Of a DNA stretch of 64,000 bases, positions 8,722 to 32,877 are shown in pieces. Origin of the DNA: Candidatus Micrarchaeum sp. GTDB lineage: Archaea; SpSt-1190; DYHY01. Position 1 is the stretch's first letter. Each line of letters starts with the position of its first letter. The notes beneath the pieces were generated by a model. That model had not been told where the DNA came from. It saw only the letters and a list, made by a program, of their open reading frames with translations, and did no database searches. Location of the stretch: positions 31,465-95,464 of the forward strand of contig DYHY01000002.1 in assembly GCA_020723935.1 (NCBI GenBank), read 5' to 3'. Position numbers and translations under genes: made by a program.

Positions 8722-8751
8722 GCGGAGCGCAGGGAGAAAAACCGGAGAATA

Positions 8752-8763
8752 GGTATATTAATA
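8752..8763 (+). promoter_or_regulatory. Archaeal TATA-box-like element upstream of the 8789 gene
   Basis: ggtatattaata lies about 30 nt upstream of the ATG at 8789, which fits archaeal BRE/TATA spacing. Confidence 0.4.
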
Positions 8764-8788
8764 GGAAAGGGGGTGGAAGCGAGGGAAG

Positions 8789-9355: not shown

Positions 9356-9389
9356 TGCGGCAAGAAGGGGGAGGAACTGCGTAAGAAGG

Positions 9390-11760: not shown

Positions 11761-11770
11761 GGGGCACAGC

Positions 11771-12331: not shown

Positions 12332-12361
12332 GCGCCATTTAAGCCCTCTCAAAAGGCCAAA

Positions 12362-12375
12362 ACAATAAATAATAC
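12362..12375 (+). promoter_or_regulatory. TATA-box-like element upstream of the 12401 gene
   Basis: acaataaataatac is centred about 30 nt upstream of the ATG. A similar element sits ahead of the degraded paralog at 31102. Confidence 0.4.
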
Positions 12376-12400
12376 AGTAGCATTAACACAAGACAGCACC

Positions 12401-12994
12401 ATGGCCCACGGACGCAAATCAAGCGAACAACCCATCTGGCTTCTAGTCGCGCTACTGCTAGCGGTCGTAGTCGGCATAGCGATGTTCAGCACGATCAACA
12501 GTGGCATGAACAAGTTCGGCACATTCACCCAGGCCACCGGCCAGGAGAGCGACCGGATAGCGATAGAGACTTTCTGCAAGAACTGGATAAGGCCGCAGGA
12601 AGTCGACCTTGCGGGCAACATCAACCCGCGCGCATCCGAGCCCACCGCGCCGGAGCGCGAGAGGGCGACGGACTCGTTCAGGAAGTACGGCTGGCTCCTC
12701 GCGGAGAAGGACTCGAACAAGGTGTATCTGGAGACGGGCCCGCCCAGCGGATGCGACTGCATAGTCTTCCTCACCTCAAGCGTCGGCTCGTCCTCGCTCC
12801 CGCCCACCAGAGCCAAGCAGTTCCTCGTCTCCGAAGCCAGCACCGGCTCAATGTACGACCCGGTAAAGTGCGGATTCAAGGCGTACTGCATCGGGAAGAC
12901 GTCCATACCGGAGCTTGGGGGCGTCGAGCTGTTCGGCGAGGGGAGCCTGAGCGCCACGGCGATGGAAGCCAAGTTCCCGGCGCGCACCTGCTAG
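12401..12994 (+). CDS. Pilin-like protein, paralog of 11771 and 31102
   Basis: MAHGRKSSEQP, then IWLLVALLLAVVVGIAMF. Nucleotide identity to the region 31150–31400 is roughly 85–90% by eye. Confidence 0.6.
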   Translation: MAHGRKSSEQPIWLLVALLLAVVVGIAMFSTINSGMNKFGTFTQATGQESDRIAIETFCKNWIRPQEVDLAGNINPRASEPTAPERERATDSFRKYGWLLAEKDSNKVYLETGPPSGCDCIVFLTSSVGSSSLPPTRAKQFLVSEASTGSMYDPVKCGFKAYCIGKTSIPELGGVELFGEGSLSATAMEAKFPARTC

Positions 12995-13064
12995 GGAAAG
13001 CGCGCCCCGCGGCCGGAAAGCATAAAGACGAAAGGGGGAGCGTGAGCCGCGGAAGGCGGGGAAG

Positions 13065-13664
13065 ATGGCGCGAAAATATGGTTGCCGGCGGCGCAGGAGG
13101 GGCCAGGTCACAGACACGCTCCTCATGGTCGCCTTCTTCGCGCTCACGATGTTCCTCCTCGCCCGCTGGGCGCTCTACTACGCGAACGTCTCGGACAAGG
13201 CGAGGACGATAATAACGATGAACAACATCAAGGACGCGATCGAGCAGGTCTGCACGAACAAGCGCGTCCAGATATCGGTGAAGGTCGTCCTCCCGCAGGA
13301 TTCGGCGCTCCTCCCCTTCTCCTGCGACCAGGTCCAGGCGCTCTCGACAATAGGCCCGATAGGGGGCGTAACCAAGGACGTCTCGCACGTCGGGGGCTTG
13401 GAGGCTGTCATTGACGACTGCCAGAGGAAGGGCGAATCCAAGAAGAACGCTGCCCTCCTCTACATCTGGAAGAAGGACGCCCAGAAGATCCTCTGGGTGA
13501 TACAAACCTCCCCGGAGGAGCTCAACGTCGAGGCGGTAACAACGTACTGCGTCCTGAGGGACTATAGCGGGGAGGCGTTCCTGGGCGGAAGGAAGCAGAG
13601 CGCGGAGGTCGGGCTCACGCAGGCGGGCGTCGTCTACACGAGGCCCGTCTCCCTGGAGGCATGA
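13065..13664 (+). CDS. Pilin-like membrane-anchored protein
   Basis: RRRRRG, then QVTDT, then LLMVAFFALTMFLLA. Confidence 0.55.
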   Translation: MARKYGCRRRRRGQVTDTLLMVAFFALTMFLLARWALYYANVSDKARTIITMNNIKDAIEQVCTNKRVQISVKVVLPQDSALLPFSCDQVQALSTIGPIGGVTKDVSHVGGLEAVIDDCQRKGESKKNAALLYIWKKDAQKILWVIQTSPEELNVEAVTTYCVLRDYSGEAFLGGRKQSAEVGLTQAGVVYTRPVSLEA

Positions 13665-15316
13665 AAAGGGGGATGGCTGGGAGGAAGGGCGACTGGGGCG
13701 GATACTACATAATCCTCGCGATAATGTTCGTCGTCATCGGCGGCTGGATAATAAACATGGCCGTCAATTCCATGAACACCTGTAAGATGGACGTCCCGGA
13801 GAGGACGACGCGCATCAAGGAAATAGTGGAGAAGGTGTGCCTCGATCCCCTTCCCGGGACGAGCGAGACGTTCGTCGGGAGCTCCTGCCCCTCGCGCTAC
13901 GAGGTGACGGCGGCCTCCTGCAGCGACCTTACGTGGCGCATGGCATTCAGGGATCTTCGCACGGGGTTCTTCGGCAAGCCCTTCGGCCTCACCTGGTTCT
14001 CCCCCCGGACCGGGAGCCCCCCGTCCAACCCCTCGCCCCATTTCACAACTAGCCTCACCAACGAGCAGGTCATGAACGAGATACTTGACAGGGCGCGCGA
14101 GCTGGACGACCCCGACAGCATACTCGTCCAGACCGCAAGGGTCGTCCCGCACGGCCACCACCTCCCCGGCACGATCGTCTCCCCGTTCACAAACACATAC
14201 GTCCCCGAAGTCATAACGAACGAGCACCTCGCGAAGATCCCCGTGAGCCTGGACAAGACGATCGTCATCTCCGACATGGACGAGGACGACTTCACGGGCG
14301 GGATGCTCGCGGCCGTCGCCTCCGCCGAGGAGATGAACTTCATATGGAAGAACGACATAAGCCGCAAGCTCGTCGGCGTCTATACGCTCATCGGGATGCA
14401 GATATACGGCAGCGTCACCTTCGGCCCGAAGAACTCCCCGGCGGCATCCTACGTGATAGCGACCGCCCCCCAGTTGACCCTGAGGCGCGACCGGGCCCAG
14501 CACCTCGCCTCCGCCTATTTCGACTACGTGGGGAAGTACGGGACGGCTTCTGCCAAGGCGATAGCGGGCGGGGCGAACGCGACCGTCTGGAACTCGGCCG
14601 ATCCATGGCAGAGTCTGGTCGACGCGAGCAACAGGATCTCCTCGGTCCCGTGCAACGAGCCCGGCGACTTTTGCCCGATGCAGAGCTACGCGAACGACCT
14701 CCTCGCCGGGATAAACGACGCCCTCGTCAGGATGCGGGGCCTCTACTCCTCGATCGCTGCCGGCAGGGCGGACACGATCGCCCTCCTGCAGGCGAGGATC
14801 GATTCCGGGGCCTGCGGCTCAATCGCCAGCGGCTCGGAGAGGTTCCCGACGTGCGCGGCGATGATATCGTGCAACTGGATAGACAGGACTCTCACCGAGC
14901 GCCTCCAGAAGAACGGCTGCCTCATGAGCGCGGTCAACGTCAACGGGAACCTGGAGGCGCTGCCCCTCGGCGTCATGGAGCGCGAGGCGGCCCTCGAGGT
15001 CTGGGACATAAACCTCCCGGAGAGCACGGCGTCCAAGATCTCCGGGGAGTACAGCTACCGCCCGGCGATACACTGCCCGTCGATAATCCCCGGAAGCCAC
15101 CTCCCCGCGTGGGGCCACGAGGCGGAGAAGGTCGTCGCGGTGTGCATGCACGACAAGAACCCGGAATGCTCCAAGGACGACACCTGCTACTACTGCTACA
15201 CAATCCAGTGCGCCAACAAGGTGAGCGTGGAGACTGAGCCCGCGACGGCGATAACCGTGAAGAACGTCGAGGGGAGCGGGACGGAGCTGCGCGGCGCAAT
15301 ATACCGGATAAAGTGA
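13661..15316 (+). CDS. Large pilin-like or membrane-anchored extracellular protein
   Basis: ATGA overlap. MKRGMAGRKG, then DWGG, then YYIILAIMFVVIGGWII. 551 aa with Cys pairs. Confidence 0.55.
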   Translation: MKRGMAGRKGDWGGYYIILAIMFVVIGGWIINMAVNSMNTCKMDVPERTTRIKEIVEKVCLDPLPGTSETFVGSSCPSRYEVTAASCSDLTWRMAFRDLRTGFFGKPFGLTWFSPRTGSPPSNPSPHFTTSLTNEQVMNEILDRARELDDPDSILVQTARVVPHGHHLPGTIVSPFTNTYVPEVITNEHLAKIPVSLDKTIVISDMDEDDFTGGMLAAVASAEEMNFIWKNDISRKLVGVYTLIGMQIYGSVTFGPKNSPAASYVIATAPQLTLRRDRAQHLASAYFDYVGKYGTASAKAIAGGANATVWNSADPWQSLVDASNRISSVPCNEPGDFCPMQSYANDLLAGINDALVRMRGLYSSIAAGRADTIALLQARIDSGACGSIASGSERFPTCAAMISCNWIDRTLTERLQKNGCLMSAVNVNGNLEALPLGVMEREAALEVWDINLPESTASKISGEYSYRPAIHCPSIIPGSHLPAWGHEAEKVVAVCMHDKNPECSKDDTCYYCYTIQCANKVSVETEPATAITVKNVEGSGTELRGAIYRIK

Positions 15317-15388
15317 GCATCCAGGGGATTTGGGCCGCGGAAGGGCACATTAATATAGTCGTCTAGTCTCCGTGAGCGAGGATACCAG

Positions 15389-16546
15389 ATGGCCGAGGGA
15401 CCCAGCTCGTCTACAAGCATCGGGACGATACTGGGCCTCGTCATCGAGGTCATCGTCCTCATCGTCGTGATGGGGATGGTCGCATCCGAGGTCACGTACC
15501 TCGCGACGATGGCCCACCTCCAGGAGGCCAAGATCCTCGCGAGCACGATAGCCGGCATGATAACCGCCGTCTCCGCGGCGCCGCAGGCCGGCCTCTACTG
15601 CGTCTCCATCCCCGCGACCCTGGGCTACGACGTCGCGATCGGGAGCGCGAAGCTGGACAACGTCGGGAGCGCCCTGGAGCTTCGCGACGTACCAGACCTC
15701 TCCCCCTGGTGCCCCGTGAGCGCCCTGCCCTACGCGGATGCGGAGGGCGTCCCCTACATCCAGGAGTTCAAGGCCGCCGCCGACAAGTACGACGTCCCGG
15801 TCGCCGCCCTCCTCGCCGTCGGGCAGCTGGAGAGCGGCCTGCAGCACTACGAACCCGACGGCATGACGGTGAAGGTGAGCCCCACCGGGGCGGTCGGGAT
15901 AATGCAGATTCTGGACGGCCCGACGGAATTGGCGGCGAACATAGACAGGGGCGCGAAGGAGTTCCGCTCGAAGATGGACTATTTCGACGGCGACGTCCAG
16001 GCCGCCTTCGCGGCGTACAGCGGCGGGAACGCGGGGGCCGCCGAGCAGATAGACCTGGCCGGGCGCGAGATCTGGATAGAGAGCATTCTGGCCTTCTCGA
16101 GCCTGCGCACACACCTCTACAACGACGTGAAGACGTACGGTAGCTGCAGCTGCATGTCCGCCGACGAGTACCTGGCCGGCACGATGCCCCCGTTCCCGGG
16201 CGGCCTCACCTACACGGCCGAGCGCCAGAACGCGTGCGAGGTCAAGAGGGGGACCGAATACGCGCGCGGCTTCGAGGCCCTCGGCCTGGGCTCGGTGAAA
16301 TACGGTTTCGTCGCGGCGATAAAGAAGGAGGGGCGCTCTGGAGGCGTCTCCTACATGCCGGTCTCAAACATCGACAGCCAGGTCATACGCGTGCCCGTCG
16401 GGCAGAAGTACACTCTCCTTGCTAAGAAGGCACTCGTCCCGCGGCTGAGCGGCGGGTATGAGGAGAAAATAGTGCTACGCCTGAGGAAAGGAGGCCTCGC
16501 GCAGGCAGGATGCAACGTCGACACCCCGTCGATATGCATCTACTGA
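15389..16546 (+). CDS. Membrane-anchored SLT-domain protein (lytic transglycosylase, lysozyme-like family)
   Basis: N-terminal TM helix. The canonical SLT motifs are present: LLAVGQLESGL (the catalytic ES), GAVGIMQI, and AAYSGGNAG (the AY-N-G motif). Confidence 0.75.
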   Translation: MAEGPSSSTSIGTILGLVIEVIVLIVVMGMVASEVTYLATMAHLQEAKILASTIAGMITAVSAAPQAGLYCVSIPATLGYDVAIGSAKLDNVGSALELRDVPDLSPWCPVSALPYADAEGVPYIQEFKAAADKYDVPVAALLAVGQLESGLQHYEPDGMTVKVSPTGAVGIMQILDGPTELAANIDRGAKEFRSKMDYFDGDVQAAFAAYSGGNAGAAEQIDLAGREIWIESILAFSSLRTHLYNDVKTYGSCSCMSADEYLAGTMPPFPGGLTYTAERQNACEVKRGTEYARGFEALGLGSVKYGFVAAIKKEGRSGGVSYMPVSNIDSQVIRVPVGQKYTLLAKKALVPRLSGGYEEKIVLRLRKGGLAQAGCNVDTPSICIY

Positions 16547-16548
16547 AG

Positions 16549-17826
16549 ATGGCGGCCGAAACCAGGAGGAAGGGAGCCGCGGGCGGAAGGAGGCGGGGCC
16601 AGTCGCTCTCCAGCGTCGTGATCCTGCTCCTCACCCTCACAATCCTCGTCGTCGTCATAGTCACATCCATCGTCGCGAACGCGGAGTTCAACGCCATGTT
16701 CGGCAACCACCTGAAATCGCGCGAGGCGCTCCTGATCGCCTCCAAGATAACGGGCGCCCCGCAAATAGCCCTGGACATGGGACGCGAGGGCCTGCACAAG
16801 AACATGCTAGACACCCGCCGCCTCGACACCCTGAACAGGACGCACCGCGCCAAGATGCCGGCGAGCGCCTACGTCTTCTGCTACAACTGGCGCGCCGAGA
16901 TCTACGACACGGACCTGAAGAAATATTGGGAGTTCGGCGCGAGGAACCCTGCGAGGGACGCGATGTACGAGCTGTGCCTGGCGTACGGATGGGGCATGGG
17001 CGGGGCGGCCTACGGCGGGCAGTTCGAGGACCCCAGCTGCCTCGCGATCGCGCAGGGCGCCGACAGCAGCGACGTCGGCGAGGACTATTTCGTAATCCCG
17101 GTGACACTTGTCAACTACGCAGGCAACAAGCTCAAGAACTACACCTTCGGCGCGATGAGGGTGGCCGTCTGGGCGAACTCCAGCCAGTGCATCGGGGAGA
17201 ACGACAGGGAGAAGCAGTACAACGAGGCCGTGCGCCTCATCGAGAGCGCCCCCCTGTTCGTGCCCACGAGCTCCCAGGCTGAGCTGCCCTACCAGCCCAA
17301 GAGCATCGCCGTCCCGGGCGGGGCGACGTACTCGACGATGAGGTGTGAGGAGCTCCTGATAGAGAGGATACGGATGCATTTCGACGAGGTGCGCGCCGAG
17401 AACATGAAGGCCAGGGCGCCGGCCTACACCGACCGGATCGAGGAGGCGGCGAGGGCTGCCGACGTTGACGCGAACCTCCTGCGGGCAGTAGTCGCCGGTA
17501 GGAGCGGCTTCTCCCCGGAATATCCCAACGGGGGCTTCACGGGCCTGCCGGCGTCGGTCTATCCCACCCCGCCGATGGACGTGAGCGAGAACCTTGCGGC
17601 CGCGGCAACCCTCCTTCGCCAGTACCTTGACCAGGCTTCCACGCAGTACAACGGCGGGCACTGCTCGCTCAACTATGCGATCTACGCCTATCTCACGAGC
17701 GGGGAGGTCCTCTCGCAGTACGTCGCCGGGACACTCAAGCCCTCCGGCCCGGTAGAGGCAGTCTCCCAGGACATAATCTCGCTTTTCGACAAGTTCAACT
17801 CGTGCTCGGAGTCGATAGCTACATGA
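16549..17826 (+). CDS. Pilin-like membrane-anchored protein with a degenerate SLT-like segment
   Basis: ATG is 3 nt after the upstream TGA. RRRG, then QSLSS, then VVILLLTLTILVVVIVTSIV. The C-terminal stretch LLRAVVAGRSGFSPEYPNGGFTGL resembles an SLT fold but lacks the Glu. Confidence 0.5.
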   Translation: MAAETRRKGAAGGRRRGQSLSSVVILLLTLTILVVVIVTSIVANAEFNAMFGNHLKSREALLIASKITGAPQIALDMGREGLHKNMLDTRRLDTLNRTHRAKMPASAYVFCYNWRAEIYDTDLKKYWEFGARNPARDAMYELCLAYGWGMGGAAYGGQFEDPSCLAIAQGADSSDVGEDYFVIPVTLVNYAGNKLKNYTFGAMRVAVWANSSQCIGENDREKQYNEAVRLIESAPLFVPTSSQAELPYQPKSIAVPGGATYSTMRCEELLIERIRMHFDEVRAENMKARAPAYTDRIEEAARAADVDANLLRAVVAGRSGFSPEYPNGGFTGLPASVYPTPPMDVSENLAAAATLLRQYLDQASTQYNGGHCSLNYAIYAYLTSGEVLSQYVAGTLKPSGPVEAVSQDIISLFDKFNSCSESIAT

Positions 17827-18563
17827 CGGGCGAGGAAGCCGGAAGGCGGAGCGGCGGGCGCAGGGCGCAGGGCGCCGAGACGATAGTCGTGCTCATCTTC
17901 ATCGTCGCGATGTTCTTCGCGCTCATCGTCGCTTTGGCGTTCCTCAAATTCAAGGTGAACTTCGCGATAACGGAGGTGAGTGCGCAGGAGGACCAGCTCC
18001 CGACGATGCAGGCGCTCTCCTACTCCACCGTCGGGCGGCTCATAAGGACGCCCGTGCTCTTCTACAACCTCGCTAGCATCGCATCCGTCACGGGCCAGGA
18101 CGTCTTCATCTTCTCGGCTGAGAGCGGCTCGGTGAGCATCCAAGACATACTGAACCAGAAGCTCGAGACGTATTCCGCGGGGCAGCTAGCGCTCTTCTAC
18201 CCCAAGTGCTTCGAATACAACCTGAACGACGAGATGCGCGGACCCCTCTGGACCAAGTTCCTCGCCGCGGGCACGATCCAGGCCGACAGCTGCCAGGAGT
18301 ACGGGGCGAGCCAGGCGGACAAGGGCCAGGAGACGTTTGCCAAGAAGAACTACATCTACTTCTTCCCGCTCCCGCCCCTCTCCGACGGGACGGCGCGCCT
18401 GAGCGAGCAGTTCATCAGGGTCTTCGCCCTGCGCGACAAGCCCAGGATCATGGCCCCCTCCGGAGGGGTGGAGCGGCCCGACTGCAACGCCAACGGCGCG
18501 GCCGCGTCCCTCCCCGAGGACTGCTGCTCTGGAAGGATGGCTGGCGGAGTCTGCATGCCCTGA
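17823..18563 (+). CDS. Pilin-like protein. Last gene of the locus.
   Basis: ATGA overlap. GRRAQG, then AET, then IVVLIFIVAMFFALIVALAFL. C-terminal CC..C motif. Confidence 0.55.
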   Translation: MTGEEAGRRSGGRRAQGAETIVVLIFIVAMFFALIVALAFLKFKVNFAITEVSAQEDQLPTMQALSYSTVGRLIRTPVLFYNLASIASVTGQDVFIFSAESGSVSIQDILNQKLETYSAGQLALFYPKCFEYNLNDEMRGPLWTKFLAAGTIQADSCQEYGASQADKGQETFAKKNYIYFFPLPPLSDGTARLSEQFIRVFALRDKPRIMAPSGGVERPDCNANGAAASLPEDCCSGRMAGGVCMP

Positions 18564-18617: not shown

Positions 18618-19610
18618 TCATTCCTGAATCAGGAAATCTCCGGGCCAGCCGTATTTCGCCTGCCGTCTGTTCGTCGCGGGCGCAACATCCTGTGCGGGCC
18701 CTGGGGAATATGTGACGGGCTTCGGCGCGGCCGGGTCCTGGACGGCCGCGACCTCAACACCTTCTCCCAGCGGGGCCATGCCCAAGTCGACATCCACGTA
18801 TCCGAGGGCGATGGCGTTGGGCGCCTGCCAGTAGGATGCTCTGCACTCGGGCAAAGGGGGTGTTGTCGTCGGAGTGAGGCTGAAGCCGGCAGTGCTGCCG
18901 CCCAAGGCGTCGTTGGCATGCGCGTCAACGGCTTTCCACACGAAGTCTTCAATCCCTCCGGACGCGAGCGAGCCCATTCCCGTTATTGTCCGCCCGTTTG
19001 TCAATATCACGTAAGTTCTGGAAAAGGCCTGATTCTGACTCCTTTCCCGCGCGACTGCGGCGGACAGGAATTGAGCAACATCGTGTATACTCCCGTCGCG
19101 CGCGACATATGAGCCGTTGAGCCCGTAATAGTCGCTAAACGTTATTTCGTCTCCGGCTTTCGGCGGCACCACGAAATTGATATATATGTTGTCGTAATAG
19201 CCAGGACAGTCAGAGACCGGCGTGGATCTCACGGCGTCTATGAACGCTCCGGTGCTAGACACCCACGTCGTTATCGTTGGTTGGCCCGTGCCGAGTCCCT
19301 GATCGGTAAAGGGAACTTCTGCCCCCAGTATGTCCGGCCGGAGCCATATCGCGCCGTCCTGGAACGGGTTGCTCTGCGAGTCGGGCTTCGCGGTCGGTGG
19401 GACGGTTGCGGTCGGAGTGGGAGTCGGAACGTAGAGCGTCGCGGTCGGCAGGACCTGGGTCTGCTCGGCCGTCTCCGTCGGGGTCGGCGCTATCAGGGTC
19501 TGGATGACCTGCGGATCCTGGGGCGGGTCGCATCCGCTGAGCGCAAGGGACACCACGAGGGTGGCCGCGGCGGTCATATAAACCAGCTTTCCTCTCATTC
19601 GTGCTGCCAT
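18618..19610 (-). CDS. Secreted lipoprotein with Thr/Pro-rich linker
   Basis: Signal peptide with lipobox LALSGC, followed by a PTPTPT linker and a globular domain. Transcribed divergently from the giant hydrolase gene. Confidence 0.6.
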   Translation of the reverse strand: MAARMRGKLVYMTAAATLVVSLALSGCDPPQDPQVIQTLIAPTPTETAEQTQVLPTATLYVPTPTPTATVPPTAKPDSQSNPFQDGAIWLRPDILGAEVPFTDQGLGTGQPTITTWVSSTGAFIDAVRSTPVSDCPGYYDNIYINFVVPPKAGDEITFSDYYGLNGSYVARDGSIHDVAQFLSAAVARERSQNQAFSRTYVILTNGRTITGMGSLASGGIEDFVWKAVDAHANDALGGSTAGFSLTPTTTPPLPECRASYWQAPNAIALGYVDVDLGMAPLGEGVEVAAVQDPAAPKPVTYSPGPAQDVAPATNRRQAKYGWPGDFLIQE

Positions 19611-19968
19611 TTTGATTTCGTCACTTCTCCTCTGTCCGTCGCTTGCTATGATGAATGAATTGATGCTATCGTCCCAATGTATGCTTCAATCCGGTTTATT
19701 TATGTTTCGGGAATTTGGTCCGGGAACCGCGGTTTTTCCAGTTTTTCTTCGAAAAAAGGGGGCTTTTCGCGGGACGCCATCCTCCAACGGCGCGCAATAT
19801 TGCACCGGGATTGCGCATTGCCGGCATAAATCGCGCTTTGGGGATGCGAATCCTGCTCCTGCAGGGGCGCCCTCCGAGCGCGGGCTAGCCGCCGTGCCGC
19901 CAAGACGCCCCCCGTTTTCCGCTCCGTCCGGAAAGGCGCCGGAAAACGGGAAGGCCGACCGAAGGGCA

Positions 19969-19980
19969 AATCAATATAAC
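19969..19980 (+). promoter_or_regulatory. TATA-box-like element in the AT-rich region upstream of the giant hydrolase gene
   Basis: aatcaatataac lies about 37 nt upstream of the in-frame TTG at 20017. The surrounding 400 bp is distinctly lower in GC than the flanks. Confidence 0.35.
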
Positions 19981-20016
19981 GGAAAGCGTGCTAGCCTCCC
20001 GGGGACCGCGAGAAAG

Positions 20017-23000
20017 TTGGATTCCGACCGCAAGCCCGGGGATGCCCGGCTGGAGCAGGCCGCGCGCACGAGGCATGCCGCAGCCCGGGCCGGAAGCGCG
20101 GGCCGCAGGGGCGTAGGCCCGGCGGTCATAATCATCGGCGGAATCATCGTCGTCGCGATCGCCATCGCCCTGTTCTTCCTCTGGCTCCAGTCGCTCGCGA
20201 CGATTGACTTGCAGGCGGACATCGAGGCTTCCGAGAACAAGTACGTGACCGCGATACATGTCATGGAGGAGGCGCGCATCTACATAAAGACCGCGACGGA
20301 ATACGCGCTGCAGCTAGCAGTCCTGGACGTCTCTAGGCACGGCGGATACATCGAAAGTCCCAAGACAGGATCCAACGGGCTCCCGTACCTGGGCTGGATA
20401 AACCCCGACTGGACGGCCTTCGCGCCGTGGCTCGGGCGCGACGTCTACAGCGAGCACGGTTTCCCGCTCAGGTGCCCGGAGAGCGACAGCGATTACGCGT
20501 TCGTCATCACCCCGCCGCAGGTGAGCGACCCCAACGCCCGGCCCCTTGTCGACAAAATACTGCGCGAGATAAACTACTCCGTCCCGCCGATGCTTGAGCA
20601 GTACGTGCAGATCCTCGAGAGCAACTCGTCGCAGTACAAGCTCAACATCACAGTCTGGGACCACAACGCCGGGAGCTGGTATTTCAACAAATTCTGCCTG
20701 GACTTGGGCGGCCCGGCCCTCCCGAACGACCCGGCCCTCTGGAGCAACATTGAGAGTTCGGGGGTCGCGTGGGTGAAGGCGGGCTTCGCCTGGGGGGACA
20801 TCCAGTCCGCGCAGGGCGGGGAATACGACTGGACCCGTGTTGACGCGCTCTACACGGAAGCCGAGAAAAGGAACATAGAGGTGATCCCGATATTCGGCTG
20901 GCCGCCGCAATGGGCGAGGACCGAGGCCGGCGTGAACGACGTCTGCATCGGCGGCGGGGCGGGCGGCTGCAGCAACAGGCCCGACTACGACAAGTACGAC
21001 GACTACGCGGCGTTCATCTCGTCCTTCATGAGCCACGTGAAGGGGCGGGGCTGGCAGATCAACTACGTGATACCTTGGGTCCCGGGGATAAACAAGGCCG
21101 ACAAGTGGTCCGCCGTCGGGATCGACACGGCGGAGTTCGCGCGCTTCTTCAAGATAGTCTCGCTCAAGATCAGGGCGACCGAGCCGTCCGTGAAAGTCAT
21201 ACTCCCGGCGCTCACCGAATACGCGGAAGTGTGCGGCTACGACGGGTACCCCCTCGACCCCAAGCCATGGAGCCTCTTCCAGACCGGAGGGGGGTGCGGC
21301 GCGTACGCGTGCCCGGCCGGGAAGAGCTGCGGCGGGGTGAAGTACATAGCCGGCTGCGCGAGCCCTTACGACACCGAGAGCCAGGCGGAATGCTTCGCGA
21401 TAAACGCGGTCGACTGCACGCGCTCCGAGGCGATCCACACCGCCGGCCCCGACGGCAACCTGACATGCCAGCACTACGACTACTGGCACCCCTACATGTA
21501 CGACCTGTCCGTGCGCCCGCCCGACACCAGGCGCGTCGTCTACACCGCGATGACGCAGTCGGCGTTCCTCAACGACCTCTACATCAACGGAATAAATGAC
21601 TATTTCGACGCGATGGAGGTCTGGGGGAGGGGCGCGAGCACCGACGAGCAGCTCCAGCGCGCGGACCTCTACAAAGGGAAGCTCGAGAGATACAAGGACA
21701 CTGAGAAGAAGATATGGTTCGAGCCCATAGTGAGCGACGTGTCCCTTGAGCCGGCGCCCACCGCCCAGTTCATCGCCGAAATCTATTCCAGGGTCCAGCA
21801 GTCGCCCCAGTACGACTATCTGGGGCCTGTCTGCCTCGGCGGATGGGGCCCGGGCACGATATCGGGCCTCGCCGCGCTCAAGAAGCCAATCTACTTCGCC
21901 CCGTGGGGCGAGACCAACCTCACGACGGTGCACGAGACGCGCGTCTACACGACCCCGCCGTCGGTCGTCTCAAGCAAGCAGTTCACGGGCTTCGGGATGA
22001 CGAAATCCGTCGACAACACGACCGCGGCCCTGGGCTTCTCGATACAGGAGATACTCAACGAGGCGAGGATGATAGCCAAGAACCCGTCGCGCGCGGTGAT
22101 GTCCGGCGGCGTATCGTGCTCCTCCAAGAACGGCTTCTGCCCGGCGGCGTGGTGGAAGCGCGGCGACGCGAAATCCTGTCAGATAGGGAACTACGTCTGC
22201 CCGACGGACGCGGGGGACGGCGAGATAACCTGCAGCGCGAACGAGGTCGTCCCCTACAAAATGACATGCACCGCGGTCGCGGCCCTCTACGAATACACCT
22301 GCGTCGTCGATTCCGACGACTATCCGGGGCCGGGGGTCCCCTACGTCAACGCCAACTCCTGCAATGAGGGCGTGACATGGGTGACCGGGCAGGACGCCGC
22401 CGGCGGGGCGACCCTCGGGAGCAAGGGCGTGTGCGTCGCGCTCAAGGACGCGAAAGACAACGAGATCAAGTGCAGCCAGATAAACAAGGACAGCCACCGC
22501 CTCGGGATAAAGAACCCGTTCATATTCTGCAGGAACGTCGACGACCAGTGCTGCAGCTGGTCCGACACCCCCTACGAGTACGAGAAGGACCTGAGCATCG
22601 CCAAGCAGAGCACCGGATGCTATTGCCAGGCGCTTAACCCCAGGAGCGGCAGCCCCGGGGACCCTGGGGACAGCAGCGTCAACGACGGGCCCGCGGGAAA
22701 ATTCTTCTGCACTGGAGGCATACCCAGCTACAAGTGCGACTCGTGGTTCGGGGCGGACGGATGGGTGGCGAACGACCTGGGCACGGTGGACTTCGGAACG
22801 GACTATCCGGACGCCTACATGTCCGGCTGCAGGAACGAGGGAAGGAACCACGGCGGCGTTCCTTGGGTCGAAATATGCACGAAAAATCCAAAACCCTGCT
22901 ACGACAGCGCATACGATGGGCAGTCCCCGCCGCCGGAGATATCTTTGACAGGCCCGGACTGGGGCGCGTTCCACTCTGAAAGCAAGCCTCCTGAATGCGC

Positions 23001-26000
23001 GGCCGCCGGTGCCGACTGCGAGCTGGGTCCGGAAGAACCGCAAGGTTGTGGCGGAGACTTCTTTTCAGACGGGGCCGGCCACTGCTGCAAGATGGTCGGC
23101 ACTCCTCCACAGCCAGATTGCAGCAGGGACGAGCCCACGAAGCGCTTCTGGTGGTGCGAGGCCAAGGACACGGATCCGAGCGCCCAACCGCCCGAAGAGA
23201 AGCACGTCCCGTGCGGCGACGAGGGGTCCGGCGTCCCGGGGCTTTGCACGCGCCAGAGGCCCGGAGACAAGAAGATCTACAATCCCCTGCCCTGCCCCGG
23301 GCCCAACGGATGCTTCGGAGCGCTCCGGGGCGCGCCCTACCAAATACCCAACTACAAGGAAGGCTGGAAGGGCGACGCGCCGGCGAGCGAGATAGACGGC
23401 GGCCGGGTGTGGGGCAACGTCCCCGAGGAAGGGGAGAGCGTCGCATTCCACCTGCAGAGCGCAGCGGGGGGGAGCCTTAACAAGTGCGCGGATTCCGTAG
23501 AGGATCCCGCGTACCCGTATCCGGACAACGCCATGGAATGCTGGGACGCGAGGCCCGTCCCGACGCTCAACAAGATCCATGACCCGGAGCAGAAGCGAAA
23601 CGATGTGCGCCTCTCGCGCCTCGACTGCGAGGTGACGGTGACCAACGCCCGCTGGGCCCTCCTCTCGCTCACGCAGGGCGAGCTCACATCGGCCGACGCG
23701 TTCAAGAGCTTCCCCGACGAGTTCAAGTTCAACCTGGAGCTCCAGTACCGCGACAAGGACTGCCTAAGAGGCATAGCCGCGGAGGGCGACCCGCCGAGGC
23801 CCAAGTCAACGAAGTTCGAGGAGGGGCAGGCATTCGAGCACGACTGCACGTTCTACCGCCTGCCCAACACAGAATGGGCCAAGGACCCGGTGCCGGGCGA
23901 CCCGTGGCCCCCCGACACCGAGCCGATACAGCGCCTTGAGCACAAAAACCTGCCCGTGCCCCCGGGCTACAAGACGCTGGACATACAGGGCGCGAGGAAC
24001 TCAATACCGGGCTGCTGCGGCTACGAGAAGAACAACACCGAGTTCAAGGCGACGATAAACTTCGGCTACGACATAACCCCGCCCGGGCCGGTGAACGGCC
24101 TGAACAACCCGGGGGCGGGGAGCGCCGCGGACCTCACCCCCGTGCCGGCGATCGGGGGCTGCGGCTCGATAAAGCCCTCGTTCACGAGCTCCTCGCAGAT
24201 ACCGAACCTGGCGCTCTTCCAGCAGGTCTCGCAGGAGACAGGGGTCCCTGTCATCTACCTCCTCGCGAGGGGCTGGGACGAGTCGGGCCTCAACCACTTT
24301 TCCACGGACGGGGTCACGGTCAAGGGCTGCACGAGCGGCACGAGCGGATGCCACGGGTACATCGGCATAATGGCGGTCTCCGCATCGATCCCGGGCGTGA
24401 CCGACATCCTCACCAACATCCGCGAGGGGGCGAGGAAGCTGAAGGCGGACATCGACAGGGTCGGGAGCTTCCAGGGCGCGGTCATGATGTATTCGGGCGG
24501 CCCGACGGGGGGCTGCCAGCACATAACGACGCTCCTGGGCGGGACGGTCGGGGGCTTCTACGAATACGACCTCTCCAAATGCAAGAAGCCACCCGCAGAC
24601 TGGGTCCCGCAGCTGTCCACGATAACGAGCAGGACATTCAGGGACCCCAAGGTCCTGATCTACAACCAAGGGAGCCCGTCCCTGGACGATCGGCAGATAT
24701 CGCTCTACGGCTATTCGATCGAATGGCAGAACGCCTGCGCGCTCTTCAGGGATTACGAGGCGGTGCAGGTGATAGCCCCTCTATTGGGCGGAGGCAGCTC
24801 TGCGACGACAACCACGACTGCCGGGCCCAGCCCTCCGGCGGGGGGCTTTGAGCTCGGCGGCCAGGTGGCGGGCGGCCTCTCCGACAACGCCCTCGCCAAG
24901 ATGAAGTGCTCAGGCATGACGTGGGTGAAACAGCAGATAAGGTGGGTCCCCGGCGCGAACCCCCAGGATCCGAAGGGCCTGATAGACGACATCCACGGCA
25001 AGGGGCTGAAAGTCCTCCTCAGCATAACGGGCGACAACGGGAATCCGGCCGCCTTCCCCACGCCCGCGCAGTTCGACAGCTACGCCTCCTACGTGGCGGG
25101 GGTCGCGACGCTCGGGCCCGACGCGATAGAGGTCTGGAACGAGCCGAACCTTGACAGGGAGTGGCCCAACGGCCAAGTGAACGGTGGGAATTACGTCAAT
25201 CTCCTCAAGAAAGCGTACCCGGCGATCAAAGCCGCGAACCCGCAGGTCCTGGTGATTTCGGCGGCGCTCGCGGAGACCGGGGCCGCCGGGAGCGCCGGAT
25301 GCACGGCGGCCTACTGCAACTACGACACGTTCCTCGGGCAGATGGCTTCGGCCGGGGCGGACGCCTACCTCGACTGCGTCGGAGCCCACTACAACAGCGG
25401 CGTCGTCAGGCCTACGTCCTCGAGCGGCGACCCGCGCGCGCAGGATCCCAAGTACAGCTACTTCTCTTCCGTCAAGGACACTTACAAGGCGGCGTTCCCC
25501 GGCAAGCCCGTGTGCTTCACGGAAATAGGCTACTTCTCCAGCGACGGGTTCTCGGGGGCGCCGGCGGGGATCAACTTCGACCACAACCTCGCAGACCACG
25601 CGGCATTCGACGGCGAGATACCGACGGCCTCCAAGCAGGATTCGTTGGTGAAGCTCGCCATAATATGGAACGTGGACTTCACGTTCTACGACCCGGCGGG
25701 CGACCCGCAGGCGGGCTGGGCGATAATACGCCCCGACGGGAGCTGCCCCGCGTGCGCGGCGATGGGCGCGGCGATGGGGGCGCCCGGCGCATCCAGCTGC
25801 GCCTCCGCCGGCGGCGGGATCAACGGGGACGAGGAATGCGCGAACGGCAGCCCCTATCCCGGCGAGGGGGGGATGGGCGGGGGAGGCGGCGGGGGCGGAG
25901 GGCCCTACCCGCCCGGAGGGATCGGGGCGGGAGACTACTGCAACCCAGTCCCCACTTCGACGAGCTTCGGCAACCTGTTCTGCGCGTGGAACGGGCACAA

Positions 26001-26475
26001 CGGCCTGGACTTCATGGCCAACGAAGGCGACCCCCTCTACGCGATACAAGAGGGCACAGTCATCTTCGCGAGGGACAGCTTCAACGAGAACTGCGGGGAC
26101 GCGAGCCTTCCGCCCGGATACGTGCGCTGCGGCCTCTGCGAGACGAGGTGCTACAGCTGCAGCAGGAACGCCCTCGTCATACAGCACCCGGACGGCAGGT
26201 ACAGCACCTACCTCCACCTCAAGCCGGGGAGCATCCTTGTGAGGAGCGGGCACGTGAACAGGGGCCAGCAAATAGCCCAGATAGGGGACGAGGGCTGCTC
26301 CAGCAGCCCCCACCTGCACCTCGAGATGGCGACCCTCGGCTCGCTAGGCGGGCAGGACAGGGGCTGTAACTCGGGGACCGACTGCTGTAAGGCTTCCTCG
26401 TACTACGGCCCGCTGTTCAGCGCCAAGACGATAGACCCCGGACCGTACACGCAGAGACTATGCACGGCGCCCTAG
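20017..26475 (+). CDS. Giant membrane-anchored multidomain cell-wall hydrolase. Domains: GH TIM-barrel-like, Cys-rich modules, SLT-like lysozyme, GH5, M23 peptidase.
   Basis: The track ORF runs 19612..26475 (2287 aa), but its first ~160 codons look like GC-frame noise. The TM helix (VGPAVIIIGGIIVVAIAIALFFLWL, about nt 20101–20180) is preceded by the in-frame TTG at 20017. GH5 motifs are IEVWNEPN (about nt 25129) and CFTEIGY (about nt 25519). SLT-like motifs are ARGWDESGLN and GYIGIMAV (about nt 24250–24390). M23 motifs are HNGLDF and PHLHLE (about nt 25990–26320). The start codon is uncertain. Confidence 0.8.
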   Translation: MDSDRKPGDARLEQAARTRHAAARAGSAGRRGVGPAVIIIGGIIVVAIAIALFFLWLQSLATIDLQADIEASENKYVTAIHVMEEARIYIKTATEYALQLAVLDVSRHGGYIESPKTGSNGLPYLGWINPDWTAFAPWLGRDVYSEHGFPLRCPESDSDYAFVITPPQVSDPNARPLVDKILREINYSVPPMLEQYVQILESNSSQYKLNITVWDHNAGSWYFNKFCLDLGGPALPNDPALWSNIESSGVAWVKAGFAWGDIQSAQGGEYDWTRVDALYTEAEKRNIEVIPIFGWPPQWARTEAGVNDVCIGGGAGGCSNRPDYDKYDDYAAFISSFMSHVKGRGWQINYVIPWVPGINKADKWSAVGIDTAEFARFFKIVSLKIRATEPSVKVILPALTEYAEVCGYDGYPLDPKPWSLFQTGGGCGAYACPAGKSCGGVKYIAGCASPYDTESQAECFAINAVDCTRSEAIHTAGPDGNLTCQHYDYWHPYMYDLSVRPPDTRRVVYTAMTQSAFLNDLYINGINDYFDAMEVWGRGASTDEQLQRADLYKGKLERYKDTEKKIWFEPIVSDVSLEPAPTAQFIAEIYSRVQQSPQYDYLGPVCLGGWGPGTISGLAALKKPIYFAPWGETNLTTVHETRVYTTPPSVVSSKQFTGFGMTKSVDNTTAALGFSIQEILNEARMIAKNPSRAVMSGGVSCSSKNGFCPAAWWKRGDAKSCQIGNYVCPTDAGDGEITCSANEVVPYKMTCTAVAALYEYTCVVDSDDYPGPGVPYVNANSCNEGVTWVTGQDAAGGATLGSKGVCVALKDAKDNEIKCSQINKDSHRLGIKNPFIFCRNVDDQCCSWSDTPYEYEKDLSIAKQSTGCYCQALNPRSGSPGDPGDSSVNDGPAGKFFCTGGIPSYKCDSWFGADGWVANDLGTVDFGTDYPDAYMSGCRNEGRNHGGVPWVEICTKNPKPCYDSAYDGQSPPPEISLTGPDWGAFHSESKPPECAAAGADCELGPEEPQGCGGDFFSDGAGHCCKMVGTPPQPDCSRDEPTKRFWWCEAKDTDPSAQPPEEKHVPCGDEGSGVPGLCTRQRPGDKKIYNPLPCPGPNGCFGALRGAPYQIPNYKEGWKGDAPASEIDGGRVWGNVPEEGESVAFHLQSAAGGSLNKCADSVEDPAYPYPDNAMECWDARPVPTLNKIHDPEQKRNDVRLSRLDCEVTVTNARWALLSLTQGELTSADAFKSFPDEFKFNLELQYRDKDCLRGIAAEGDPPRPKSTKFEEGQAFEHDCTFYRLPNTEWAKDPVPGDPWPPDTEPIQRLEHKNLPVPPGYKTLDIQGARNSIPGCCGYEKNNTEFKATINFGYDITPPGPVNGLNNPGAGSAADLTPVPAIGGCGSIKPSFTSSSQIPNLALFQQVSQETGVPVIYLLARGWDESGLNHFSTDGVTVKGCTSGTSGCHGYIGIMAVSASIPGVTDILTNIREGARKLKADIDRVGSFQGAVMMYSGGPTGGCQHITTLLGGTVGGFYEYDLSKCKKPPADWVPQLSTITSRTFRDPKVLIYNQGSPSLDDRQISLYGYSIEWQNACALFRDYEAVQVIAPLLGGGSSATTTTTAGPSPPAGGFELGGQVAGGLSDNALAKMKCSGMTWVKQQIRWVPGANPQDPKGLIDDIHGKGLKVLLSITGDNGNPAAFPTPAQFDSYASYVAGVATLGPDAIEVWNEPNLDREWPNGQVNGGNYVNLLKKAYPAIKAANPQVLVISAALAETGAAGSAGCTAAYCNYDTFLGQMASAGADAYLDCVGAHYNSGVVRPTSSSGDPRAQDPKYSYFSSVKDTYKAAFPGKPVCFTEIGYFSSDGFSGAPAGINFDHNLADHAAFDGEIPTASKQDSLVKLAIIWNVDFTFYDPAGDPQAGWAIIRPDGSCPACAAMGAAMGAPGASSCASAGGGINGDEECANGSPYPGEGGMGGGGGGGGGPYPPGGIGAGDYCNPVPTSTSFGNLFCAWNGHNGLDFMANEGDPLYAIQEGTVIFARDSFNENCGDASLPPGYVRCGLCETRCYSCSRNALVIQHPDGRYSTYLHLKPGSILVRSGHVNRGQQIAQIGDEGCSSSPHLHLEMATLGSLGGQDRGCNSGTDCCKASSYYGPLFSAKTIDPGPYTQRLCTAP

Positions 26476-26504
26476 GCGGGCGGCAATCTGGAGAAGAGGC
26501 TTAT

Positions 26505-27149
26505 ATGAACGAATGGCGCAACACGGGATACGGGGGAAGGTCGCTCCTGCTTGCCGCGGCGGCCCTGCTCCTGATCGCCGTCCTCGCAGCCCCGGCGGCG
26601 GCCCTCCCTGAGTACTGGCGAGCCGAGCCGCCGGCCAACGGGAGCATCACGCTCAAGCTCGTCTACGTCGTCGTAGCCGCGAACTCAACGCCCGCCGGGA
26701 GGATAAAGCAAGTGGATGTGAGGAACGTGACGATGCCCTTCTCGCTCAACCTCGGAACGTCGGAAGGCGGCGGCGGCCCGTTCGTCCTGCGGGAGGTCTG
26801 GGGGGACGGCTATTCCGCCGAGGCGCGGTTCGGGATAGACGAAAAAAATCCGGCGACGCAGGATGTCTGGCTGATCTTCAACCCGCCCGAGAGCACCGAC
26901 GGCAAGACGCTCACGCTGGTCCTCGAGAACTCGGGGGCGGAACTGGACAGGATGGCGGTGCCCTACTGCGGGGACGGGACGTGCATGAAGGGCGAGAGCG
27001 TCGTCTCGTGCGTGCCGGACTGCGGCAGGTTCCTGCGCCTCTCCCGCCAGCAGGCGTCCAAGGCGGTCCAGTTCCTCGCCGGCGGGATCCTCCTCGCGCT
27101 CCTCGCCCTTTCAGTGTTCTTCGTCGCGAAGCGGATGGACGAGCCGTAG
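26505..27149 (+). CDS. Secreted protein with C-terminal TM anchor
   Basis: Internal ATG of ORF 26460. Signal peptide LLLAAAALLLIAVLAAPAAA. C-terminal helix ILLALLALSVFFVAKR. Immediately follows the giant hydrolase. Confidence 0.55.
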   Translation: MNEWRNTGYGGRSLLLAAAALLLIAVLAAPAAALPEYWRAEPPANGSITLKLVYVVVAANSTPAGRIKQVDVRNVTMPFSLNLGTSEGGGGPFVLREVWGDGYSAEARFGIDEKNPATQDVWLIFNPPESTDGKTLTLVLENSGAELDRMAVPYCGDGTCMKGESVVSCVPDCGRFLRLSRQQASKAVQFLAGGILLALLALSVFFVAKRMDEP

Positions 27150-31101: not shown

Positions 31102-32877
31102 GTGCACTGCGAACGGGCGTCTGACTTCGGACGGGGCCGAAGGGCGAGAAGGGCCAGCAAGCAGCCGGTTTGGCTCCTGGTAGCGATACTCTTTGCGGTC
31201 GTCGTCGGCATCGCGATCCTCAAAATGATGAGCTGCGGCACGACGAATTTCGGCACGTTCTCCTAGGCGACCGGCCAGGAGAGCGACCGCGCGGCGATCG
31301 AGACGTTCTGCAGCAACTGGATAAGGCTGCAGGAAGTCGACCTATCGGGCAACATCAACCCGCGAGCTTCTGAACCCAGGCAGACTGAGAAGGCGGGCGC
31401 CGCCGAGATCATGCGCAAGTACGGGTGGCTATCGACCGCGAAGAATCCGGCAACCAAGGAATACTTCGAGCTTATTCCGACGGGCTGCGACTGTATCGTC
31501 TTCCTCGCCTCGACCGCCGGCGGAACGAGCCTTCCGCCGTCGAGCGCCAAGGTGTTTTTGGCGCAGAACGCGCCGCCTGCGGACGAGAACAGGTACAGCC
31601 CCAACACGTGCAGCAACAGGGCCAAGTGCGTCGCAAACAGGCTCGAGGGCCCAAATCCCATCTTCGGAATAAACACCTCCGTGAGCGCGCCCGGCGCAAC
31701 CAACGTTGCTCATAGGGCGGACGTCGTGCCTAACACCTGTTGTGCGGCCGGAGCTGCTGCCTGCCAGCAGCGGGCTCCGGGAGTTGCCGGGACCGGAGAG
31801 ACTGGCGGTGAGTCTGGCACCTCGGCAACTGAGACAACCGCGGCAACTGAGACAACTGCTGCGACGGCAACTGCCGGAGGGATGCAGGTCGCCGCAGGCG
31901 ACAGCTACGCGGGAGGAACGGTGGGAACAGGCGGGCCGTGGATCTCGGGCGCGGTGCCCGAAGAGTGCAAGAGGAGTGGGGAGACTGCCTCGGCGGCGGC
32001 GGCCGAATGCTGCACCTCAAGCCCCGACGGCACCGCCATCCTCTTCATCTACGGGCGCTGCTGCAAGGTGGGAAACGCCAAAATCCTCGACGACGAGACC
32101 GTGCTAAAGTGCTGCGGCCTGGACTACAGCGGAGGCCCGACGGGCCCGGGCTATTGCGCCTACGACGCTCTGCCGTCCGGAACCTGCAAGATGTACGGCG
32201 AGACCGCCGCATCCGCCGCGGAATGCTGCGCCCCAACTCCCAAGGACCCGATAATCTACTCGGGCAGGAGGTGCTGCGGCGGTGACGGCTATTCGTTCAG
32301 CCAGGTCTACCCGGCGCAGGTCTGCTGCAGCGGGACGATCGTCCAAGACGAGCTTCCGCAGGACTGGGAATGCTGGGGGAGCGGAGCGGGCGGCCAGAGA
32401 TGCGGGAGCCCGGGAGAGGCGAAATCCTCGGCAGCGCAGTTCTGCGGCCACGGCGTGGGCGGTTACGTCCCGGAGGGCAATGCCGACCCTATAAGCGTCG
32501 GCTATTCAGGAGGAAAATGCTGCATAGAGGACCTTGGCAGGGTCCCGAGCGATTACAGGGACGCGGGCGCTTCGGCGTGCTGCAGCGGCGACTTTGGGCC
32601 GAGGGCAATTAATTATGCGGCCTTCATCTGCGGAGGCGCGTCATGGCCCGGCTGCAAGATGTCCGGAGAACCCGCCTCTTCCGTATTCGAGTGCTGCGAA
32701 TCCGTCGAGGTTGCCGGCAACACCGCGAGGACGCCTATCTCGGTCCGCTTCGATGACGGCTGCTGCTGCAGGGCGGGCGGTGAAATGATCAATGCTGAGG
32801 AGAGCTCCGCAGTCTGCTGCTCCAACGGGGAGCGGACAATTGACCTCGAAGGGCAGCCGACGAGGATCTGCACCTGA
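31102..32877 (+). pseudogene. Third pilin-family paralog fused to a 480-aa Cys-rich extension (many CC/CCxxG motifs). It has no ATG and carries an in-frame TAG at 31264.
   Basis: The frame runs continuously from the Alba stop. The only plausible start upstream of the TM helix (QPVWLLVAILFAVVVGIAIL) is the GTG at about 31102. TAG replaces the CAG (Gln) seen in the paralog motif FGTFTQATGQESD. Track ORF 31411..32877 is the downstream part. Confidence 0.45.

Follow-up and report, generated by a model that had tools for sequence, protein, structure and literature searches.

The 64,000-nucleotide stretch of DNA analysed here (the window; contig DYHY01000002.1 of a Candidatus Micrarchaeum sp.) carries at positions 20017-26475 the gene for a giant membrane-anchored protein, in which a predicted M23 peptidase, a putative lytic transglycosylase module and a predicted glycosidase barrel are fused. 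A set of genes resembling a type IV filament locus is located upstream. An original prediction, made from the sequence, had read the product as a polyprotein that breaches bacterial cell walls. The gene, the regions that can be distinguished in its product and one related gene nearby are the following:

20017-26475 (+): giant gene, TTG start, 2152 codons plus stop; product identical to the NCBI-called protein P0001
20101-20400 (+): conserved N-terminal module (N-module), residues 29-128; RRG motif, hydrophobic helix of ~25 residues and conserved amphipathic helix
20689-21936 (+): TIM1, degenerate clan GH-A-like barrel (GH, glycoside hydrolase), residues ~225-640; recognised by phmmer homology, both catalytic Glu residues lost
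22114-23367 (+): Cys-dense region, residues ~700-1117; no Pfam match, conserved only with the giants P0123 and L010
23401-24030 (+): conserved domain, function unassigned, residues 1129-1338; no Pfam match
24178-24750 (+): putative SLT/GH23-type lytic transglycosylase module, residues 1388-1578; recognised by paralogy to the neighbouring SLT protein and by profile search
24817-25773 (+): predicted clan GH-A (beta/alpha)8 glycosidase domain of an unclassified family, residues 1601-1919; E1709 after beta4, E1836 at the end of beta7
25774-25941 (+): Gly/Ala/Pro-rich linker with a nine-Gly run, from the sequence
25942-26472 (+): predicted M23/LytM metallopeptidase domain with a Cys-rich insertion; Pfam PF01551, PDB matches and active-site residues
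15389-16546 (+): neighbouring SLT-domain protein, 385 residues; Pfam SLT 1.7e-7, 31.3 bits against a cut-off of 21.3

The frame at 19612-26475 (+) is open across 2287 codons. The longer open reading frame (ORF) beginning at 19612 was rejected, as its additional 135 residues lack conservation and the starts of the orthologues disagree with it. The TTG at 20017 is the only start codon between this non-conserved stretch and the hydrophobic helix, and the orthologous giants begin 10-20 residues ahead of their helix, hence the short N-terminus, giving 2152 residues, is taken to be right. Intact orthologues of 2018 residues (P0123, locus L006) and 2193 residues (locus L010) are found in independent assemblies and the giant is therefore not a chance ORF. 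It is a singleton at 90% identity clustering, and a word-index search with the whole protein returned only the query itself among the matches listed. The original prediction had described one giant ORF with an N-terminal transmembrane (TM) anchor, and this holds: the ORF is real and one hydrophobic helix is located at residues ~35-58. The motifs it quoted are likewise all found, in the order stated, including EYDWTRVDALYTEAEKRNIEVIPIFGW (residues 269-295), WDESGL (1420-1425), GIMAV (1450-1454), EVWNEPN (1705-1711), CFTEIGY (1833-1839), HNGLD (1994-1998) and PHLHLE (2098-2103). The poly-Gly linker corresponds to nine Gly residues at 1954-1962, and the Cys-dense modules to a region in which 31 of the 78 Cys residues of the protein fall within residues 701-1100.

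The contig belongs to an archaeal host and is not chimeric. Genes for archaeal elongation factor 2 (aEF-2; 1014 bits against a cut-off of 738), EF-1alpha and the ribosomal proteins uS7 and uS12 are located in the window, as are genes for a deoxyhypusine synthase and a helix-turn-helix (HTH)/S-layer-C protein. Among solved structures (PDB), the closest to the window EF-2 is a euryarchaeal-type EF-2. The GC content is even, at 0.60-0.68 throughout, and orthologues of the giant in three other assemblies adjoin the same genes, coding for Band_7, a 199-residue protein, GT2 and a radical SAM protein. The Band_7 neighbour is 81% identical to its L006 counterpart, and an Alba gene is also near in L006 and L007. 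A chimeric contig with the giant on a bacterial part, which the original prediction had named as one of the outcomes that would speak against it, is contradicted by these archaeal translation genes, the even GC content and the shared neighbours. The locus L010 comes from an anoxic-water metagenome of Lake Kivu. Scans of the window for tRNAs and Rfam families were empty.

The C-terminal domain of the giant matches PF01551 with 59.4 bits (cut-off 28.7; E 4e-16). In the PDB it matches zoocin A best (6e-11), along with about 30 further M23 structures. The predicted zinc-binding and catalytic residues are complete (H1994-x3-D1998, H2067 and H2099-L-H2101), and a Cys-rich insertion within the domain is common to the orthologues. 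Judged from its sequence, the assignment as an M23/LytM peptidase made in the original prediction is solid, with a match above the Pfam cut-off and a complete predicted active site.

Residues 1388-1578 share 34% identity (BLASTP, E 3e-16) with the SLT domain of the neighbouring gene 15389-16546, and a tblastn search connects the same segment with the orthologue of that gene in L006 (5e-14). A four-sequence profile that included the giant segment matched the SLT region of a phage tape-measure protein (1e-4), MltC (0.014-0.02), T7 gp16 and Slt70, and the predicted catalytic residues E1422-S1423 were aligned with the ES of MltC and of the tape-measure protein. Further SLT motifs are GIM at 1450-1452, with Ala in the Q position, and YSGG at 1492-1495. 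Neither the giant nor the isolated segment gave a match to PF01464, even at E<=10, or a direct PDB match; a two-sequence profile gave a weak match only and a search with the two-sequence alignment returned nothing. We accept residues 1388-1578 as a GH23/SLT-type module by transitive homology. The SLT-like segment of the original prediction thus stands by way of the paralogue and the retained Glu-Ser pair, but not by a direct Pfam match.

The orthologues of gene 15389 in L006 and L010 also pass the Pfam SLT cut-off. In contrast, its homologues in L007 (6822-7337) and L008 (7005-7553) are proteins of 171-182 residues without the insert; the SLT domain has been inserted into a conserved pilin-like protein. 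Only the three loci that end with a muralytic giant have the insert, and loci that end with a short protein lack it. The product of gene 15389 is the source or a paralogue of the SLT module of the giant. The C-terminus of the protein encoded at 16510-17826 was considered as a second SLT-like domain and set aside, its BLASTP comparison with the giant SLT segment not being significant.

The C-terminal barrel, residues 1601-1919, was modelled by AlphaFold2 (AF2) with a predicted local distance difference test (pLDDT) score of 89. The strands at 103-106 and 232-237 of the model precede or carry E109 and E236 (model numbering; E1709 and E1836 of the giant), the predicted acid/base and nucleophile, which are invariant in 41 sequences. 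The top structural neighbours of the model all belong to clan GH-A, the nearest being GH39/PslG. This barrel has more than 3400 homologues, the best of which are ~52% identical proteins of ~465 residues that are often fused to LysM or SH3_3, and every match with a named organism is from the Anaerolineae/Chloroflexota. No Pfam family covers the catalytic part of the ~52% identical relatives. The original prediction had called the domain an unmistakable GH5, which is over-specific: Pfam Cellulase PF00150 reaches 13 bits on the isolated barrel (cut-off 23.5; E 0.07), no GH5 match is obtained with the whole protein, and the NEP and TE motifs are clan-wide. The model instead indicates a retaining glycosidase of clan GH-A whose family is unclassified. 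Compared with the PslG and GH39-like endoglycosidases of the same clan, the giant domain has an identity of only 16-20% and is below the Pfam GH39 threshold, and its family is uncharacterised, largely from Chloroflexota by its named members and usually fused to LysM or SH3 domains. In Anaerolineae genomes (L001-L005) the family occurs in tandem arrays of 3-4 paralogues, for instance at 9422-18623 in L002 and 9269-16669 in L003, and some of these paralogues are fused to SH3_3, LysM or GH18. The arrays suggest a wall or matrix glycosidase system of the Chloroflexota that has yet to be studied.

TIM1 was connected by exhaustive phmmer searches with GH-A-like proteins over residues 243-400, with E values down to 6e-14; a GH30_2 match was sub-threshold. 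Its acid/base motif is lost, WNEPN being replaced by IPWVPGIN in the window giant and by WVPGIN, WQFPN or WLAPN across the three giants, none of which has the TE nucleophile. A large Cys-rich insertion at residues ~400-480 lies between beta5 and beta6. The region had been described in the original prediction as a first GH-like TIM barrel; the fold stands, but with both catalytic Glu residues replaced TIM1 is most likely non-catalytic. Separately, P0128, P0130 and P0133 (1266-1389 residues) contain an active-looking relative of TIM1, with WNEPN, in their C-terminal part, and a Cys-containing insertion after a PxWARTE motif that resembles the one of the giant.

Orthologues were sought by an exhaustive phmmer search, in which residues 1-1200 were compared with 1.84 billion protein representatives, and by scanning JGI metagenomes, and two orthologous giants were found, P0123 among the representatives and the L010 giant in the metagenomes. 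The three giants share the N-terminal two-thirds, that is the N-module, TIM1, the Cys-rich region and the 1129-1338 domain, and differ in the enzymes that follow:

Window giant, 2152 residues: SLT + GH-A + M23
P0123, 2018 residues: SLT-like + M23 + M23
L010 giant, 2193 residues: SLT-like + SLT-like + M23

The 1129-1338 domain is 36-39% identical to residues 1355-1550 of P0123 and 1396-1616 of the L010 giant. No recognisable family was obtained for residues ~60-225, 640-1130 and 1129-1338, which are conserved among the giants only. The Chloroflexota-type GH-A domain is found in the window giant alone among the three, and its SLT module is closer to that of the neighbouring gene than to those of the other giants, which points to recent domain capture and duplication.

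The N-module is also present in P0124 (a fragment), P0126 (675 residues) and P0127 (370 residues), and thus heads proteins of 370, 675, 2018, 2152 and 2193 residues. Its conserved positions are E73 N74 ... E84 E85 x R87 ... Q99 ... V105 S106 xx G109 G110. The N-terminus of the giant reads GRRG followed by VGPAVIII, and R31 is invariant among the homologues. The N-module has no Pfam or NCBIfam match, including the pilin, TadE and archaellin models, and an AF2 model of residues 1-248, built from a five-sequence alignment, has a pLDDT of 45. In L007 (8748-10775), P0126 combines the same N-module with a C-terminal C39-like cysteine peptidase in place of the muralytic cassette. These domain combinations suggest that the N-module may deliver different types of enzyme. 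No relatives of the N-module were found in the IMG/VR viral contigs scanned, and a viral origin was set aside on this ground.

The genes around the giant include the following:

10-2310 (+): FlaI/TadA/VirB11-type secretion ATPase, 766 residues; Pfam T2SSE 1.8e-16
3558-5627 (+): polytopic membrane protein, 689 residues, at least 8 TM helices; candidate FlaJ/TadC-like platform by its TM count
6661-18563 (+): ~14 co-oriented genes for Cys-rich proteins with [KR][KR][GAS] before a single N-terminal hydrophobic helix, from N-termini and TM predictions
26460-27149 (+): type I membrane protein (signal peptide and C-terminal TM helix) whose gene overlaps the stop of the giant; from its sequence and from homologues that follow the other giants

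In NCBIfam the ATPase matches the TadA-family (2e-38) and FlaI (2.4e-35) models, both below their own cut-offs, and it also scores on the TadA conjugal-transfer and VirB11/TrbB models. The T2SSF match of the 689-residue protein is sub-threshold (E 0.029, 14.8 bits, profile positions 4-123 of 125). In about 13 of the 15 upstream proteins the basic motif directly precedes the helix and an acidic residue frequently follows 2-4 positions further on; these N-termini follow the pattern of archaeal class III signal peptides as far as the motif goes. Several array proteins have homologues in the syntenic loci L006-L009, and the window genes starting at 11101, 12401, 13661, 15389, 16510 and 17802 are homologous to upstream genes of the related loci. 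Where the neighbouring genes were read (L006-L010), the N-module proteins (P0126, P0127 and the giants) are encoded at the end of operons that otherwise code for small proteins without a Pfam match, and the related operons adjoin the same Band_7/Alba/radical-SAM neighbourhood. The pilus-like locus of the original prediction is retained as a type-IV-filament-like locus, with its FlaI/TadA-type ATPase, a membrane protein with a sub-threshold T2SSF match and a run of pilin-like N-termini. Cys-rich, fast-evolving components and large terminal proteins have been described for archaeal type IV pilus loci (PMC4858521).

Homologues of the type I membrane protein directly follow the giants in L006 (16071-16670) and L010 (16615-17235) and share the motif YCGDxTCxKGE...C..DC; the protein could be an anchor, chaperone or partner of the giant. 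The gene at 18618-19610 (-) encodes an acidic protein of 330 residues with a lipobox-like N-terminus (LALSGC), a Thr/Pro-rich linker and no Pfam match; it has no counterpart in the orthologous loci L006 and L010. The pilin-like array contains two tandem paralogue pairs, 8173-8721/8789-9355 and 11771-12331/12401-12994. About 5 kb downstream of the giant, the gene at 31411-32877 starts with KYGWL...GCDCIVFL.S..G..SLPP, which by eye is the C-terminal-type motif of the 11771 and 12401 proteins.

Elsewhere in the window, the str-type cluster at 52911-62968 (-) is interrupted. Between uS12 and uS7 on one side and EF-2 and EF-1alpha on the other lie an alanine-aminotransferase-like gene, a gene on the other strand for a 639-residue protein with 9 TM helices and a 464-residue Pfam-less ORF. 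The deoxyhypusine synthase ORF at 48509-49966 (+), as listed, has an N-terminal extension of ~160 residues without a family match; its exact sequence is not in the protein collection, and the real start may lie further downstream. The protein encoded at 41106-42113 (+) shows an unusual pairing of ArsR/HTH_20-type winged-helix domains with an S-layer-like outer domain (PF05124).

Taken together, we hypothesize that the giant is a cargo-bearing terminal subunit of an archaeal type-IV-filament-like (Tad/FlaI-type) system that attacks bacterial murein, a reading to which we give about an even chance of being right. The N-module, with its class-III-signal-like RRG, hydrophobic helix and amphipathic helix, would insert the giant into the membrane and couple it to the machinery or the filament, and we infer prepilin-like processing and filament attachment from these features. 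A disulfide-rich ectodomain of ~2000 residues would then present a lineage-variable enzyme cassette at the archaeal surface or on the filament. The SLT module would cut the glycan strands of murein and the M23 domain its peptide cross-links, while the PslG/GH39-like GH-A domain, acquired from Chloroflexota, would probably cut a wall-associated or matrix polysaccharide and the inactivated TIM1 barrel probably serves as a glycan-binding or scaffold module. On contact, neighbouring bacteria might be breached or lysed locally, in the course of predation, parasitism or competition. The system is proposed to be chromosomal and vertically inherited. Since the producer is an archaeon without murein, the envelope of bacteria is the presumed substrate. 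To our knowledge, the substrates of SLT and M23 enzymes are absent from archaea, and a weapon or feeding tool directed at bacteria, as the original prediction had it, is in this respect reasonable; the substrates of the individual domains and the biological purpose are, however, what we infer, and the concept has already been published.

Directly supported are the intactness of the gene, the homologies of its domains and their catalytic residues, the archaeal context, the synteny of the loci and the variability of the cassette. An anti-bacterial filament-type system is backed by the constant last position of the N-module proteins in the syntenic loci L006-L010, by the co-variation of the upstream SLT insert with a muralytic giant at the end, and by the fusion of the GH-A relatives to peptidoglycan-binding LysM or SH3_3 domains in Chloroflexota. 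Several observations weigh against it. No pilin, prepilin-peptidase or T2SSF model reaches its threshold anywhere in the locus, and no A24 peptidase is present among the window ORFs examined, although one may lie elsewhere in the genome. The class III reading of the N-termini depends on a short motif that could in part be explained by the positive-inside rule, the conserved part of the N-module is the helix after the membrane segment, which is atypical for type IV pilins, and the N-terminal model, at its low pLDDT, is unusable for judging a pilin fold. In the window, moreover, the opposite-strand gene at 18618-19610 and a spacer of 400 bp part the giant from the operon. Finally, no known wall-binding module (LysM, SH3 or PG_binding) was found in the giant, and ~900 of its residues have no assignable function.

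Some of these points would equally fit a plain membrane-anchored ecto-enzyme that scavenges peptidoglycan or polysaccharide necromass for carbon and nitrogen, independently of the filament genes and without attacking live cells. The N-terminal helix suits a simple signal-anchor just as well, the giant has its own 400-bp upstream region beyond the opposite-strand gene, and relatives come from anoxic lake water, where turnover of necromass by small archaea has been proposed. On such an account, however, the same terminal operon position of the N-module proteins in L006-L010 and the co-variation of the SLT insert in an upstream pilin-like protein with the muralytic cargo would not be expected, a tethered enzyme of 2152 residues would have a poor reach to dispersed polymer, and no genes for muropeptide uptake or catabolism were seen in the window. 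We regard scavenging as possible but distinctly less probable than the filament-type attack. The combination of a TM anchor with M23/LytM and SLT domains beside a VirB11-family ATPase is closest to PrgK of plasmid pCF10 (PMC11323569), and the ATPase scores on conjugation-type models point in the same direction; the giant might thus resemble VirB1 or PrgK and open a local hole in the wall of a bacterial partner for a filament or conduit, serving attachment or the exchange of DNA or metabolites and not killing. Against this, the window ORFs scanned gave no match to families of the VirB4, VirD4 or relaxase type, the sole FtsK/SpoIIIE match is sub-threshold and falls on the T2SSE ATPase itself, and the locus is chromosomal and syntenic across relatives and not a mobile element, in keeping with the lack of N-module relatives in IMG/VR. 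Three or four lytic domains together with a matrix-type glycosidase also exceed what hole-punching would need, and we consider such a wall opener unlikely.

A third possibility concerns the target: the enzymes could act on an archaeal wall, be it the producer's own or that of an archaeal host, made of pseudomurein or another polymer, in remodelling or episymbiosis. The known hosts of DPANN archaea are themselves archaea, and the substrate of the GH-A domain leaves room for other polymers. However, SLT enzymes yield a 1,6-anhydro product of N-acetylmuramic acid, which pseudomurein lacks, and the peptide cutters of pseudomurein known to us are cysteine peptidases and not M23 enzymes. The closest structure to the M23 domain, zoocin A, is a weaponised murein endopeptidase, the relatives of the GH-A domain are bacterial proteins with fused LysM or SH3 domains, and neither pseudomurein genes nor genes of the Mur type were seen in the window, all of which makes an archaeal target very improbable. 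Lastly, the clearly bacterial (Chloroflexota-like) origin of the GH-A domain and the singleton status of the giant at 90% identity might be taken to indicate an assembly artefact or a decaying, horizontally acquired gene without function. We give this hardly any credence, as the 2152-codon ORF is intact, catalytic residues are kept in three domains, two intact orthologues in independent assemblies have the same archaeal neighbours and the GC content of the window is even.

Going beyond the attack on murein by a terminal filament subunit, the locus might represent a contact-dependent anti-bacterial machine of archaea that has not been described before, in which pilin-like subunits of a Tad/type-IV-filament-like system carry effectors, as the SLT insert in one subunit and as the polymorphic, exchangeable muralytic cassette on the terminal giant. 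We put this forward tentatively, as a doubtful extension. Such a machine would be functionally analogous to the Kil system of Myxococcus or to polymorphic-toxin delivery systems, and would possibly be aimed at Chloroflexota, the source of one captured effector domain.

As a concept, hydrolases of archaea directed against bacteria are already known. The M23 hydrolases with which archaea kill bacteria include zoocin-A-like enzymes such as Woldo of Halogranum salarium (Strock et al. 2025, PMC12352652), and large GH23 transglycosylase genes have been found in Woesearchaeota (PMC9723730). Experimentally backed antagonism of archaea towards bacteria so far comprises a few small secreted hydrolases. 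New features of the giant are the scale of the fusion, a family-specific N-module combined with exchangeable cargos, the association with a filament-type locus in an archaeon and a GH-A family that is uncharacterised. The family of giants would add a delivery context, consisting of the filament-type locus, the N-module and interchangeable cargos, with which the delivery of wall-degrading enzymes to bacteria would become directly testable, the practical limit being that all members come from uncultured organisms. The GH-A family, without a characterised member, is a candidate for a new wall-active or matrix-active glycosidase.

With the published archaeal hydrolases (PMC12352652, PMC9723730) the giant has in common murein-specific M23 or GH23 domains in archaea, acquisition from bacteria, domain shuffling and a role that is read or shown as anti-bacterial. 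Those enzymes, however, are short and secreted and consist of one catalytic and one known wall-binding domain, whereas the giant has ~2150 residues, is anchored, combines three catalytic domain types with a dead barrel, has no recognised wall-binding domain, and lies in a type-IV-filament-like locus with a family-specific N-module. The archaeal survey was confined to modular hydrolases with a catalytic and a known wall-binding domain (PMC12352652), and the giant, having none of the latter, would likely have been missed. Among the VirB1-like and Gram-positive hydrolases of type IV secretion systems, PrgK of Enterococcus pCF10, a TM-anchored protein with LytM, SLT and CHAP domains encoded beside a VirB11-type ATPase, functions in Gram-positive conjugation (PMC11323569). 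Both proteins have an N-terminal anchor, a LytM/M23 domain, an SLT domain and a further lytic domain, with a VirB11-family ATPase nearby. PrgK, however, opens the producer's own wall and is encoded on a conjugative plasmid, whereas the producer of the giant has no murein and the locus is chromosomal; the giant is also ~2.5 times larger, contains GH-A barrels and is not accompanied by a VirB4-, VirD4- or relaxase-type gene in the window. The modular type IV pilins, large minor pilins and tip adhesins, among them the large terminal proteins of archaeal type IV pilus loci (PMC4858521), resemble the giant, itself a putative pilin-like protein, in having a pilin-like N-terminus and a large ectodomain and in their position at the end of a pilin array, and Cys-rich, fast-evolving components are found in both kinds of locus. 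Their known cargos are adhesive or lectin domains and not wall hydrolases, and the giant differs further in having no match to a pilin hidden Markov model and no prepilin peptidase among the window ORFs examined. In Myxococcus xanthus, the Tad-like Kil apparatus accomplishes contact-dependent killing of prey (PMC8460266). Kil and the window locus are alike in their Tad/FlaI-type ATPase machine and in the contact-dependent lysis of neighbouring bacteria, which for the window locus is proposed. Kil is, however, bacterial and is likened here by function and not by homology of its components, whereas in the window locus the lytic domains are fused to pilin-like N-termini.

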